A stretch of 64,000 nucleotides of DNA from Anaerolineales bacterium. Its GTDB lineage: Bacteria; Chloroflexota; Anaerolineae; Anaerolineales; RBG-16-64-43. The translations under genes were made by a program, and so were the position numbers. The stretch spans positions 30,808-94,807 of the forward strand of contig JAFGCU010000025.1 of assembly GCA_016932475.1 (NCBI GenBank). The letters run 5' to 3'. Of this stretch, positions 5,813 through 52,952 are shown piece by piece. Every line of letters begins with the position of its first letter. Within the stretch, counting starts at the first letter, position 1. The notes beneath the pieces were generated by a model. That model did not search any database and was not told where the DNA came from. It saw only the letters and a program-made list of their open reading frames with translations.

Positions 5813-5980
5813 CACCCTTGGCTCTGCAGGAAAATATGGTGTGATATCCAGACACCCTTGGGGTGCAGGGGAAACTTACCCCCCCTGTGGCACCCTTAGG
5901 GTGAGGCAACCCTTGTCTACCTTTCGGCACCCTTAGGGTTGAGGCAACCTTTGTTTACCCTTCGATACCCTTAGGGTCTG
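5813..5980. repeat. Tandem 37-40 bp repeat with palindromic core CACCCT-T-AGGGTG (5 copies)
   Basis: Core starts at 5813, 5853, 5891, 5928, 5966. Confidence 0.8.
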
Positions 5981-25570: not shown

Positions 25571-26422
25571 ATGAGCGCAAAAAAACACGGACTCGGGCGC
25601 GGCTTGGACGCCCTCCTCCCGGCCGAAGCCTCCCCCGCCGACACCATGTCGGTGCCGGTGGGAAAGATCCGCCGCAATCCGCGCCAGCCGCGGGCGACGA
25701 TCGACCCCGGCGAACTCGAGGAGCTGGCCGCGTCGATCCGCGAGCACGGCGTGATTCAACCGTTGATCGTCAGCCGCGGAACGGCTCCCGATGAGTACAT
25801 CCTGATCGCCGGAGAGCGGCGGTTGGAAGCCTCGAAGCTGGCCGGGCTGGAACGGGTGCCGGTCCTGGTCCGCGACGCCTCCGACCAGCAGCGCCTGGAA
25901 CTGGCGCTGATCGAAAACCTTCAGCGCGAGGATCTCTCCCCGCTCGAGACGGCGGAAGCCTACCGTCATTTGCATGAGGATTTCGGACTCTCGCACGAGG
26001 AAGTCGCCAAGCAGGTGGGGAAGAGCCGCGTCGCAGTTTCGAATACATTGCGCCTGTTGAAATTGCCGGAGCGCGTGCGCCAGGCTCTGGGCGCGGGTCA
26101 AATTTCCGAAGGTCACGCCCGCGCCATCCTGGCCCTCCCGACCATTCAGGCGCAGCTGGCCGCGGTGGATACCGTCCTCAAGCGCGATCTGAGCGTCCGT
26201 CAAACCGAAGAACTCGCGCGCCGGATGACCGGCAAGCGGGCGCCCAAGGCCGCTCCGCCGCGCCTGCCCCCGGACCTGCGCGCGCTTGAGAAAAAATTCG
26301 AGGAGTCGCTGGGGACGCGGGTGACGATCAAGCGCGGCAAACGCGGCGGCCTGGTCCTTTTATATTACTACTCCGACGAAGAGCTGGATGCGATTGCCGG
26401 CCAGATTTTAAAAGGGAAATAG
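25571..26422 (+). CDS. parB: ParB/Spo0J partitioning protein
   Basis: GLGRGL, NPRQPR, IAGERR CTPase motif, ENLQREDL, GKSRVAVSNTLRLL HTH. Confidence 0.97.
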   Translation: MSAKKHGLGRGLDALLPAEASPADTMSVPVGKIRRNPRQPRATIDPGELEELAASIREHGVIQPLIVSRGTAPDEYILIAGERRLEASKLAGLERVPVLVRDASDQQRLELALIENLQREDLSPLETAEAYRHLHEDFGLSHEEVAKQVGKSRVAVSNTLRLLKLPERVRQALGAGQISEGHARAILALPTIQAQLAAVDTVLKRDLSVRQTEELARRMTGKRAPKAAPPRLPPDLRALEKKFEESLGTRVTIKRGKRGGLVLLYYYSDEELDAIAGQILKGK

Positions 26423-26769
26423 CCTCCTCCCTCCCCTCTCCCGTCAAAAAACCACTTAACGGGGGAGGCTGATGCGGAAGAATCCTCCCCCGTAAGCCGT
26501 TCCTGGTTTTCGGTTGACGGGTGAGAATGTTGCAGAAGAATCCTCCCCCGTTAGCCGCTCCTGGTTTTCGGCTAACGGGCGAGAATGTTGCAGAAGAATC
26601 CTCCCCCGTTAGCCGCTCCTGGTTTTCGGCTAACGGGGGAGTTTGATGCGTAAGAATCCTCCCCCGTTAGCCGCACTCGGTTTTTAATTGGGGGGAGGCT
26701 GATGCGTAAGAATCCTCCCCCGTTAGCCGCTCCTGGTTTTCGGCTAACGGGGGAGGACAGAGGAGGGGG
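26423..26769. repeat. Upstream hairpin array: left module plus five 56-58 bp units
   Basis: Units start 26478, 26536, 26594, 26652, 26708; consensus aagaatcctcccccgttagccg-ctcctggtttt-cggctaacgg(gggag); perfect 15-bp stem in units 3 and 5. Confidence 0.95.
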
Positions 26770-26785
26770 CGATCCAGGGGCGAAC

Positions 26786-27190
26786 ATGATCAAGAGAAGA
26801 AAATCCCGCCGCGGCACAACAGCTCAAACCACGCAATTCGCCAAAATACTCAGAACTTCCATGACCCCCGCGGAGCGCTTGTTGTGGTCCCGGCTCCGGC
26901 GAAATGCCACAGGTGTTCACTTCCGGCGGCAAGCTCCCCTTGGAAAATTTATCCTCGATTTCTACTGCGCCAAATCCAAATTGGCGGTCGAAGTGGATGG
27001 CGATATCCATGTTAATCAAACCGGCCATGATAACGAACGATCGGAATGGCTCAATTCACAAAAACAAATTCGCGTTCTTCGTGTCACGAATAAGGAAATT
27101 ATAGAGAATATGGATGGCGTAATAATGTATATACTTCAGGAATTGGCATCCGCCCCCTCCCTTCCCTCCCCCGCCAAAAAGATCCCTTGA
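26786..27190 (+). CDS. DUF559 / Vsr-like endonuclease
   Basis: AKILRTSMTPAERLLWSRLR, FRRQAPLGKFILDFYC, LAVEVDGDIH, DNERSEWL, VLRVTN; AT-richer than neighbours. Confidence 0.92.
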   Translation: MIKRRKSRRGTTAQTTQFAKILRTSMTPAERLLWSRLRRNATGVHFRRQAPLGKFILDFYCAKSKLAVEVDGDIHVNQTGHDNERSEWLNSQKQIRVLRVTNKEIIENMDGVIMYILQELASAPSLPSPAKKIP

Positions 27191-27460
27191 CGGGGGAGGG
27201 TTACCCGCGGGAATCCTCCCCCGTTAGCCATACTTGGTTTTTTTACTTACGGGCGAGAATGTTGCAGAAGAATCCTCCCCCGTTAGCCGCATTCGATTTT
27301 TAGCTGGAGGGGGGGCTGGGGAGGCTGATGCGTAAGAATCCTCCCCCGTTAGCCGCTCCTGGTTTTTGGCTAACGGGGGAGGACAGAGGAGGGGGTCTGC
27401 CGGCTTTTAAAAAAAACCTCCCCCGCTGGTTGCCATAATCTCTTGGCAAACGGAGGAGGG
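27153..27460. repeat. Downstream hairpin array: left module, three units and a terminal degenerate hairpin
   Basis: Units at about 27211, 27268, 27334; 27318-27395 matches 26692-26769 at 77 of 78 nt. Confidence 0.92.
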
Positions 27461-27493
27461 AATAATGGAAGCCAAGCATATTCTTGCGATAGA

Positions 27494-28654
27494 CTACTTC
27501 GGCGCGGATCGCGCCAGCCATTCTCGGATCGTATTGGCGAGCGTCTCCAGCCGCGCCCGGTCCCCCTCCTGCGCGGCTTGCAGCGCGTCCGAAATTTCTT
27601 CGAACCGCTCCTCCATACGGTTAAGTTTCTCCGCGACTTTGGTGAATTTACGATCCCGTTCGCGCCACTCGTCTTCCCAGGTGAGGTTCTGCGCGGTCCA
27701 CCGCTTCTGATCGTCCGCCAGAAAAGTGGTCCAATCCTGGCGCAGACGGTCCTCCTGAATACGCTGGATTTCCGCCATCTCCTTGAACTTCTGCTCCATG
27801 CGGTCGGAAAGGCTGTGGTATTCGTCAATCGACTGGCGCATCGAGCGCTGGAGTTCCTGAAAACCCTCTACCTGTTTGAGGAAATCCGCCATCCGGGCGA
27901 TTGAATCCGCGCTGCGTTTCTCCAAGTCTTTCCATTGCCGTTCGCGTTCCACCAGGGCCGAGGTTTGTTGCTCCTGCCAGATGGCCATAGCATTGCGGCG
28001 CTCGAGTTCCAGCGCCATAAGTTCCGCCAGCCGTCCATCGTTCCGCCGGCCGGCGGATTCAACCGCATCCAATCGGGCGGAGTTCTCGCTGCCCATTTCG
28101 CGGATCGCCTGCTGCTCCCCCTGGACGTCCGCCATGCGGCGGATATCCTGCCGCCGGCCTTCCTCCACCGCGGCCATGATCCGGGTCCGCTCTTCGTCCC
28201 GCTTCTGGACCATCTCCAGGGTCTTGCGCATCTCCTGCAACAGAATCGCCTGGCGCGCCTGTTCGGATTTTCGGGCTTCCATCGATTCCTGCAAGTCTCC
28301 GAGCAGTTCGATCTGTTTCTTGAATTCGCCGATCGTTTTATCGACCCGGTTTTTTTCGATCGTACGCGACCGTCCGGCCTGCTCCTCGAGCTCCAGGCGC
28401 CGTTTGTCCATCGAGTCCAGCGCGCGGGCGGTGTCTTCGCGATGTTTGGAGATCAGCTCGTCGATCTTCTGCGGCTGGATGCGGGTGTTCATCTTCGTCA
28501 GCTGCGAACTGGCATCCTGCAGCTGCTTGGCCTGAGATCCCACCACGCCGGTCAGGTTTGCCAACCGCTCCTCAAGCTTCGCCAGCAGCGCCTTGTCTTT
28601 CCGGCGCTCCTCATCCAGCCAATCCACCCGGTTTTTCAGGTCTTCTCCTGCCAT
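27494..28654 (-). CDS. Long coiled-coil hypothetical protein
   Basis: 386 aa, E/K/R/Q-rich heptad pattern; TATAAT and GGAG upstream. Confidence 0.8.
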   Translation of the reverse strand: MAGEDLKNRVDWLDEERRKDKALLAKLEERLANLTGVVGSQAKQLQDASSQLTKMNTRIQPQKIDELISKHREDTARALDSMDKRRLELEEQAGRSRTIEKNRVDKTIGEFKKQIELLGDLQESMEARKSEQARQAILLQEMRKTLEMVQKRDEERTRIMAAVEEGRRQDIRRMADVQGEQQAIREMGSENSARLDAVESAGRRNDGRLAELMALELERRNAMAIWQEQQTSALVERERQWKDLEKRSADSIARMADFLKQVEGFQELQRSMRQSIDEYHSLSDRMEQKFKEMAEIQRIQEDRLRQDWTTFLADDQKRWTAQNLTWEDEWRERDRKFTKVAEKLNRMEERFEEISDALQAAQEGDRARLETLANTIREWLARSAPK

Positions 28655-34572: not shown

Positions 34573-34682
34573 TCCTAACCCCCGCTCCCCCGGCCCCTCT
34601 CCCCCTTCCCCGTAAAGGGAAGGGGGAGAGGGGTGCCTGAGACCCGGCGGTCTGCCGGGACGAATGCGGGGTGAGGGGGTTA
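34573..34682. repeat. CCCTC-family palindromic element at carB/lysJ junction
   Basis: cccctctcccccttccc-cgtaaa-gggaagggggagagggg inner stem; cctaaccccc / gggggttagg outer arms overlapping carB stop. Confidence 0.8.
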
Positions 34683-43701: not shown

Positions 43702-43800
43702 TCTCCCACCTCCCCCTCGTTCCCCCTCCTCCCTCCCCGTAACGGGGAGGGAGGAGGGGGAAGTCCCGAGCGCAGCGAGGGATAGGGGGAGGTGGGAGGG
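43702..43800. repeat. CCCTC-family palindromic element at argG/argH junction
   Basis: Outer 15-bp stem ctcccacctccccct/agggggaggtgggag, inner 18-bp stem ccccctcctccctccccg-taa-cggggagggaggaggggg; inverted homolog at 52845-52952. Confidence 0.9.
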
Positions 43801-52844: not shown

Positions 52845-52952
52845 CCATCCCATCCCACCTCCCCCTGTCCCTCGCATTCGCTCGGGACGTCCCCCTCCTC
52901 CCTTCCCGTATCACGGGAAGGGAGGAGGGGTTAGGGGAGGTGGGATGGGATG
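52845..52952. repeat. CCCTC-family palindromic element, inverted homolog of 43702-43800
   Basis: ccatcccatcccacctcccc / ggggaggtgggatgggatgg outer arms, cccctcctcccttcccgt-atc-acgggaagggaggagggg inner stem. Confidence 0.9.

Follow-up and report, generated by a model that had tools for sequence, protein, structure and literature searches.

We analysed a stretch of 64,000 nucleotides (hereafter the window) from an Anaerolineales bacterium (assembly GCA_016932475.1, contig JAFGCU010000025.1, positions 30,808 to 94,807 of the forward strand; contig C44 below). Directly behind its parB gene lies a small gene of the DUF559 family, predicted to encode a nuclease and enclosed by two tandem arrays of palindromic hairpins with a C-run in one arm and a G-run in the other. 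Such hairpins also enclose the other DUF559 genes of this genome and follow the nuclease clades among its relatives, and we consider it very probable that nuclease and hairpin are coupled in evolution. The locus is proposed to be one of five nuclease-and-repeat partnerships in the genome, members of the same hairpin families being scattered elsewhere without a gene.

The DUF559 locus at parB

The locus is organized as array, gene and array, the two arrays having the same orientation and each being complete from left to right module (Table 1). The first repeat base directly adjoins the parB stop codon (TAG, 26420-26422), and 12 bases separate the end of the upstream array (26773) from the DUF559 ATG. 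The left modules L1 and L2 are direct repeats of each other; an L1-type module is also found in the related genomes G002 and G001, and G003 has the module alone. R1 repeats the C-run of L2 in inverted form, so the open reading frame (ORF) sits between inverted arms of 26 nt (inverted pair I14, 26748-26773 and 27148-27173, complementarity 73%). L2 encodes the last 13 residues of the protein (PSLPSPAKKIP and those preceding it) together with the TGA, and the G002 ortholog has the same C-terminal end.

Table 1. Features at the parB-DUF559 locus, in window coordinates
Feature	Position	Strand	Description
parB	25571-26422	+	Pfam ParB_N, HTH_ParB, ParB_C; upstream neighbour of the DUF559 cassette
Left module L1 of the upstream array	26423-26470		C/T-run, then small hairpin CTCTCCCGTCAA..TTAACGGGGGAG
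Upstream tandem array	26457-26757		five 56-58-bp units; C-arm TCCTCCCCCGTTAGCCG, 11-nt loop, G-arm CGGCTAACGGGGGAGGA
Right module R1 (CGGGGGAGGACAGAGGAGGGGGCGAT)	26748-26773		inverted repeat of the L2 C-run; closes the upstream array (GGAGGACAGAGGAGGGGG)
DUF559 gene (Vsr-like PD-(D/E)xK)	26786-27190	+	134 amino acids (aa); ATG 26786, TGA 27188-27190
Left module L2 of the downstream array	27148-27200		reaches over the final 14 codons and stop of the DUF559 ORF; so arranged in G002 as well
Downstream array	27189-27395		three units, C-arms at 27214, 27273 and 27339; D1 copies at 27189 and 27313
Right module R2	27374-27395		same module as R1; closes the downstream array
Extra degenerate hairpin of the window family	27418-27462		CTCCCCCGCTGGTTGCCA / TGGCAAACGGAGGAGGG; just ahead of the convergent neighbour gene
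Coiled-coil protein	27494-28654	-	386 aa; downstream neighbour; adjoins parB in relatives with and without the cassette

The C-arms of the upstream array, TCCTCCCCCGT(T/A)AGCCG, start at 26483, 26541, 26599, 26657 and 26713, each with a G-arm partner. Tandem Repeats Finder gives a period of 58 over 26457-26757 with 5.2 copies and 83% matches, and in a repeat search of the window the units make up direct family D1 and inverted pairs I1-I25. The hairpin census lists 26601-26641 as a 15-bp stem with an 11-nt loop and 26713-26757 as a 17-bp stem. Perfect stems are limited to three of the eight units because the other five G-arms have decayed. This gives the two arms an asymmetry over 26483-27383: the C-arms read TCCTCCCCCGTTAGCC[G/A] in seven of eight units, the eighth being one base off, and decayed G-arms, e.g. 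GGGTGAG, GGGCGAG and TTGGGGGGAGG, are found in five of eight. When folded as DNA, the upstream array has a z-score of -8.6 and the downstream array one of -4.3, and none of 100 shuffles equalled either. An Rfam search of the locus gave nothing above noise. An identity of the hairpins as intrinsic terminators or promoters was ruled out, as there was no enrichment.

The protein encoded between the arrays matches Pfam PF04480 over its full length (E=3e-30, profile positions 2-108 of 109), NCBIfam NF007294 at E=2e-20, which is under the equivalog cut-off of that model, and, at the sequence level, PDB entry 3HRL (E=3e-17). The catalytic signature D...E-x-D-G-x-x-H is intact, with D44, E55, D57 and H61 invariant in an alignment of 13 sequences, and the motif is found in 53 of 59 copies from relatives. 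An AlphaFold2 model (pLDDT 81) has a Vsr-like alpha/beta fold. Foldseek searches with this model gave template modelling (TM) scores of 0.76 to 3HRL, 0.70 to I-Bth0305I (3R3P) and 0.48 to E. coli Vsr (1CW0). As modelled, the fold is nearest to 3HRL and the catalytic domain of I-Bth0305I, the likeness to Vsr being moderate. The gene has a GC content of 49%, and the five DUF559 ORFs of the genome range from 44-49%, against 61 +/- 4.5% for the genes of the genome. The ratio of nonsynonymous to synonymous substitution rates (dN/dS) is 0.10-0.14 between the window gene and its orthologs and 0.10-0.18 across DUF559 orthologs at dS 1-1.8; these DUF559 genes are therefore functional and long retained. 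A PADLOC scan for defence systems returned a marginal match only (E=1e-3), and membership of such a system was dropped on that account.

An earlier note on this DNA had described the layout from the parB stop through a left module, five units, the DUF559 gene and a second left module with three units, and this was borne out when the coordinates were rechecked. Its repeat units of 56-58 bp with a 15-bp stem and an 11-nt loop also hold, with the qualification given above for the stems, as do its AT-richer gene with intact D, ExDG and H motifs and its reading that the repeat itself encodes the C-terminus and stop codon.

On either side of the locus, ParB orthologs in relatives are 80-92% identical, and profile searches with the coiled-coil neighbour (Pfam, NCBIfam) gave no convincing family. 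An unrelated 38-bp tandem repeat is located at window positions 5889-5977 (2.4 copies, GGCACCCTTAGGGTGAGGCAACCC..., Tandem Repeats Finder).

Paralogs, hairpin families and relatives

The source assembly comprises 3.65 Mb in 129 contigs, with a GC content of 61% and 98% completeness. A tblastn search of it retrieved five DUF559 paralogs with a mutual identity of 37-55%. C-run/G-run palindromes stand on both sides of every one of them, a module being directly repeated before and after the ORF, and the palindrome family is different in each case. The flanking palindromes are CCTCCCCCGTTAGCC at the window copy (C44, family F), TCCCCCCATCCC[GAA] at C43 (family B), CTCTCCCCCTTCCCC[TTAC] at C96 (family A), CCCCTCCCCA[GAA] at C31 and CCCCCTCCTCCCCTTCCC[TTAA] at C54. 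Since the bracketing holds for five of five paralogs, each with its own scattered family, the association is not due to chance.

A census of the genome at a threshold of a perfect stem of at least 11 bp gave 203 hairpins with a C-rich 5´ arm, in at least eight families, with 5.6 C-run hairpins per 100 kb. By a crude gene call, ~13% of the genome is non-coding, and about 72% of these C-rich-arm hairpins fall wholly or partly into this fraction. In the crude, ORF-based set of ~2,700 genes that was used for genome-wide counts, about 9% have a C/G-run hairpin within 250 bp and six have one on both sides. Three of these six are DUF559 genes (hypergeometric p ~1e-7 by our arithmetic), and only at DUF559 genes is it the same family on both sides. 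The remaining two paralogs fall outside the six because their stems are 10-bp or imperfect and thus below the threshold. By exact pattern, the genome contains 13 scattered copies of family F, 20 of B and 26 of A.

The only Y1_Tnp-like gene of the genome (C90:2200-3000; a weak match, E=2.6e-4) resembles a RAYT (REP-associated tyrosine transposase, REP being repetitive extragenic palindrome) and has its own, differing palindrome, (A)GACCTGTCAGGTC(T), on both sides in classical REP/RAYT style. The C-run hairpins were therefore ruled out as REPs of a RAYT. Family C (CCCCTCCTCCCTTCCCGT type) and family A (CCCCTCTCCCCCTTCCC) are also represented in the window by solo hairpins at ORF ends (43720-43762, 52892-52930, also 34594-34633); a DUF559 partner for family C is missing from this genome but present in five relatives of the same genus. 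Family D, CATCCCGGCTC-N13-GAGCCGGGATG, is not of the C-run type and has ~35 copies (e.g. C17:41725, C45:36480 and C58:38246), with no partner gene seen.

The comparison set consisted of 41 related genomes, mostly fragmented metagenome-assembled genomes (MAGs). PF04480 is present in 23 of them, including all eight of the same genus (1-6 copies each) and the sister genus g4, and was found in none of nine genomes of two other sister genera. The tree of 59 DUF559 copies has eight clades, each with its own flanking hairpin type. Within the genus, DUF559 orthologs are syntenic with one copy per clade, so that a good part of the similarity of their flanks is a matter of inheritance; the window ortholog, for instance, is directly 3´ of parB in G002 (75% aa identity) and G001. 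The pairing of clade and hairpin is, however, also kept in several cases with differing neighbours. For clade F, this applies to L013 from a different taxonomic family, which has CCCTCCCCCGTTCGG and a loop like that of F; for clade C31, to loci of two genera; for clade B, to G013; for clade A, to a divergent copy in G003; and for clade E, to three sites unrelated to each other. Between species, the hairpin cores show no difference although the DUF559 orthologs are at dS 1-1.8, a distance at which neutral intergenic sequence would be scrambled.

A pattern-seeded search extended the comparison to 55 DUF559 loci whose proteins share 36-50% identity with that of the window; the loci are spread over Bacteroidota, Patescibacteria, Proteobacteria, Chloroflexota and other groups. 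The density of perfect hairpins of at least 10 bp is 1.16/kb within 300 bp of the gene and 0.116/kb further out. Those near the gene are almost all of the form CCCYTCYCCC-loop-GGGRGARGGG, even where the genome GC is 33-36%. With 8-bp stems, C/T-run hairpins are present at 38 of 52 loci, and the motif tracks the protein tree. The two predictions of the earlier note, that DUF559 homologs would be flanked by palindromes and that the repeat type would covary with the nuclease clade, were upheld by the five paralogs, the tenfold density near the gene, the tree and the wider loci.

The same note had pointed to presence and absence at parB in relatives, which proved to vary. DUF559 is present there in G000, G001 and G002 and absent from G004 and G006, both of which have a different palindrome and a ParB 92% identical to that of this genome; G003 has a solo degenerate F module. 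At the window gene itself, the hairpins are intact on both sides and not interrupted by the gene.

Two arrangements in relatives are of a different kind. In the G006 cassette L003 (G006:C3:933108-936419), DUF559 is inverted relative to both neighbours when compared with L007 and L011, so that this cassette has been turned round between its flanking palindromes. This fits a published analysis of predicted inversion targets, in which DUF559 genes are enriched (odds ratio 14; PMC9881135). In five relatives of the same order (L012 in G023, L021 in G039, L040 in G037, L010 in G021 and L017 in G035), the DUF559 domain is inside frames of ~360 to 1,200 aa that adjoin C-run hairpins, and these domains look like in-frame cassette insertions in other genes.

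In three of four families, the genomes that have the cognate clade hold more hairpins. Genomes of the genus in which the F clade was found have 13, 19 and 21 F hairpins, and the others 0-8. For family A, the counts are 11-31, plus 1 in G003, where gene and hairpin are both variant, against 0 and 3; for family C, they are 4-37 against 1-7. The means with and without the cognate clade are 17.7 and 4.4 (F), 17.7 and 1.5 (A) and 14.8 and 4.7 (C), i.e. about 3-10 times more hairpins with the clade (stratified permutation, p ~0.004 without phylogenetic correction). In the nine genomes of DUF559-less sister genera, the four hairpin patterns have zero matches. Samples of 200 kb and 263 kb, from one genome per DUF559-less sister genus, contain no C-run hairpins, with ordinary GC hairpins present. 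G033 has 22 F-pattern matches and no DUF559, but was set aside as a counter-example: its matches belong to a different, homogeneous 55-bp family and it carries four Y1 transposase genes, so that it neither supports nor refutes the pairing. This 55-bp palindrome (e.g. G033:C44:63225-63279; CCTCCCCCGTCCG, 29-nt loop, CGGACGGGGGAGG; 22 copies) has one of the Y1 transposase genes 2 kb from one of its copies.

Signs of hairpin turnover and known systems

Signs of turnover are seen at individual hairpins. In a stricter hairpin census, the arms of family F covary copy by copy: pairing is seen at 92 of 128 inner-stem positions, whereas shuffling of the partners gave 55 +/- 5 (maximum 74 in 2,000 shuffles). 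One site that is orthologous in G006 has the inner stem TTAGCC in this genome and TTTATC in G006, three differences that are all compensated, leaving both perfectly paired. At another orthologous site, the stems are kept and the loop is swapped for roughly its own reverse complement. One hairpin site is filled in G004 and G006 and empty in this genome.

Larger units are found as well. A non-coding composite of ~370 bp with a B core has at least eight full-length copies (88-93% identical) and ~15 contig-end fragments; it occurs, in this genome only, at C29:52056-52424 (L175:157-525) and more than 20 other places, many of them contig ends. The relatives carry its three modules only separately, and in Rfam the composite had no match above noise. 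It looks like a burst specific to this lineage, and it breaks the assembly. On the same contig as the window, which begins at C44:30808, an island of 3.6 kb (C44:24400-28260) with a GC content of 50% has F-type hairpin arrays on both sides. It carries three small ORFs that are paralogous to one another, together with the gene for a calpain-like Peptidase_C2 of 394 aa (PF00648, E=2.5e-19). In G004 and G006, the island is missing from this position and a lone F hairpin stands there.

A reference for REP/RAYT systems is Nunvar (2010). The present locus resembles systems of REPs, or of REP doublets forming hairpins (REPINs), and RAYTs (Bertels and Rainey, PMC3116915, PMC3337134; bioRxiv 10.1101/2021.07.10.451892) in having a single-copy, vertically inherited gene under purifying selection with its own palindrome on both sides. 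As in these systems, the repeat beside the gene has tens of copies around the genome, a single genome holds several gene/repeat pairs, and the repeats are more numerous where the gene is found, here in three of four families with an uncorrected p of ~0.004, copies persisting without the gene and the MAGs being incomplete. Unlike REPs, the repeats are nested C-run/G-run palindromes, often in tandem arrays. The enzymes also differ, the one here having a predicted PD-(D/E)xK Vsr fold whereas a RAYT is an IS200/IS605-type HUH/Y1 transposase, and covalent strand transfer is therefore not to be taken for granted. The REP/RAYT analogy drawn in the earlier note stands for copy number, vertical inheritance and scattered cognate copies; a strict dependence of the hairpins on the gene is disfavoured by several results. 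Recognition or nicking of the hairpins by the nuclease, which that note proposed as the motor of their amplification, has the rank of a hypothesis.

A second parallel is provided by the Ssn nucleases of the GIY-YIG type and their NTS/SRM hairpins, whose specific binding and cleavage had been foreseen correctly from the genomic association (Chenal et al., 2025, PMC11893778). Activity on single-stranded DNA (ssDNA) and an effect on natural transformation have been demonstrated for Ssn (PMC11893778). Both cases combine a small nuclease gene with dispersed hairpin repeats on its 5´ and 3´ sides, across phyla and with a covarying repeat variant. They differ in repeat sequence and in nuclease superfamily (Pfam gives PF04480 and no GIY-YIG for the window protein), and any such activity of the window protein is putative. 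The locus shares the genomic features of the RAYT and Ssn systems and has the enzyme of neither, and it is therefore classed as a member of neither.

DUF559 is placed in a Vsr-like fold group (group 58, PMC3424549) and is described as a relative of the EDxHD homing endonucleases (PMC9403480), among them I-Bth0305I (PDB 3R3P; Taylor et al., 2011, as cited in PMC9403480). With I-Bth0305I the window protein shares the catalytic fold, and the DUF559 cassettes inside other genes of relatives have a similar selfish-gene flavour. In contrast to I-Bth0305I, there is no intron or intein: the gene stands by itself, in a single syntenic copy, and its presumed sites recur and are intact, not disrupted by insertion. 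Vsr and Caulobacter VsrA belong to the same superfamily as the window protein. VsrA has a DUF559 domain, is active in vivo and induces SOS (PMC12907096). No flanking-repeat association is reported for VsrA, and the likeness to E. coli Vsr is, as noted, moderate. In the searched literature that mentions DUF559, we found no link to flanking or cognate palindromes or repeats, and an enzyme-and-repeat partnership built on DUF559 is apparently unpublished.

A possible nuclease-and-repeat partnership

Tentatively, and with somewhat less than even confidence, we suggest that DUF559 and the nested C-run/G-run palindromes form a third widespread class of such partnerships after RAYT/REP and Ssn/NTS. 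A putative minimal Vsr-fold nickase would recognize a co-evolving hairpin, and nick-induced copying would homogenize, amplify and relocate the family and shape islands and arrays. We regard the case for a full nuclease-and-repeat mechanism, REP/RAYT-like or Ssn-like and working through a predicted Vsr-fold nuclease, as evenly poised; that the nuclease drives the spread of the repeats is inferred.

In such a mechanism, which we consider the most economical, the palindrome would be exposed as an ssDNA hairpin or a cruciform, or be read as a symmetric duplex site. The cognate DUF559 protein would bind it and nick or cut at or near the stem, by analogy to Vsr, the I-Bth0305I domain and Ssn/NTS. 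Repair by copying from another member of the family, or slippage, would keep the two arms complementary. The same repair could replace inner-stem variants, invert loops and lengthen tandem arrays, with the strongest effect next to the gene; now and then it could also start new copies or enclose foreign DNA between two repeats. Nicking and repair may in this way be the cause of the turnover patterns observed. The gene itself is now immobile on the timescale of the genus: each clade has one copy per genome, passed on vertically and kept by purifying selection, in which it is like a RAYT. On deeper timescales, however, the hairpin-gene-hairpin unit has been relocated whole.

Several observations weigh against this interpretation. 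Five genomes of the same genus in which no F-clade gene was found have F hairpins (0-8 copies), some of them at orthologous sites with intact stems, and one site is intact in the gene-less G006 and decayed here through a 33-bp deletion. Families C, D and E (about 6-35 copies) lack a partner gene in an assembly that is 98% complete, and F arrays bracket the 3.6-kb island, which has no DUF559 gene. Family B shows no difference in copy number with or without its clade, a test that is weak because the exact pattern skips the one-base-longer variants in G005 and G003. Presence and absence calls are soft in general, because repeat-flanked genes are easily lost from fragmented MAGs. Finally, Caulobacter VsrA has been read as an enzyme of T:G mismatch repair, in connection with a cytosine methyltransferase, and not as a repeat enzyme (PMC12907096).

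An unlikely alternative, although the one that survives best, is an old selfish cassette, i.e. a present or former homing-type mobile element whose nuclease cleaves empty palindromes, into which the gene is then copied by repair. The hairpins would be its targets or solo ends, maintained by selection on structure or by other enzymes and not propagated by the nuclease. The nearest characterized fold relative being the catalytic domain of I-Bth0305I (3R3P, TM 0.70) favours this model, as do the relocation of the gene with its own hairpins at deep timescales, its in-frame position inside long ORFs of relatives, the low GC of the ORFs (44-49%) and the solo modules at the empty parB site of G003. 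Ongoing homing is nevertheless contradicted by one copy per clade per genome, synteny at dS >1 and a dN/dS of ~0.1. A double-strand cutter, moreover, could not tolerate intact presumed targets beside its gene and at dozens of other sites, and hairpin copy number follows the gene.

Passive co-location is still less probable, and would make the palindromes hot spots of recombination or integration, or safe havens, and DUF559 a low-GC passenger with an unrelated function, e.g. very-short-patch mismatch repair. Random capture fails on a hairpin type that is clade-specific within a genome, at non-syntenic loci and across phyla. It also leaves unexplained why hairpins are absent from DUF559-less genera and why C-run hairpins stand beside DUF559 in genomes of 33-36% GC. 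What speaks for it is the unrelated low-GC island of 3.6 kb in the same arrays, where two relatives have one hairpin and no island, together with hairpins that outlast their cognate gene, the existence of orphan families and the interpretation of Caulobacter VsrA as a repair enzyme (PMC12907096).

Very improbable, finally, is an RNA or regulatory role, in which transcribed arrays control a potentially toxic nuclease, as insulators or through sequestered Shine-Dalgarno-like GGGGGAGG arms, or are RNA substrates of a RAP-like DUF559: the G-arms are perfectly Shine-Dalgarno-like, the C-arms resemble the anti-Shine-Dalgarno, an AGGGGGA is conserved 6-8 nt ahead of each DUF559 ATG and the fold is like that of mitoribosomal RAP-type proteins (TM 0.61), but the hairpins are not terminator-like and have no Rfam match, and control of one gene leaves dozens of gene-less copies and their gene dependence unexplained.

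In conclusion, DUF559 is a large bacterial domain family without an assigned role, and the C-run/G-run palindromes are likewise orphans in many phyla; a specific, co-evolving pairing hands both of them a directly testable function, for which the genus supplies natural gene-loss controls. Hairpin elements of this kind also interrupt the assembly of short reads and supply proteins with tails or inserts rich in Pro and Gly. If the proposed partnership of nuclease and hairpin is true, the five orthogonal enzyme/hairpin pairs in one genome would constitute a natural specificity matrix, and the family may be a source of small sequence- or structure-specific nickases that are programmable and have naturally orthogonal hairpin sites. 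Persistent intragenomic replicators with a dedicated enzyme would then reach beyond the HUH transposases.

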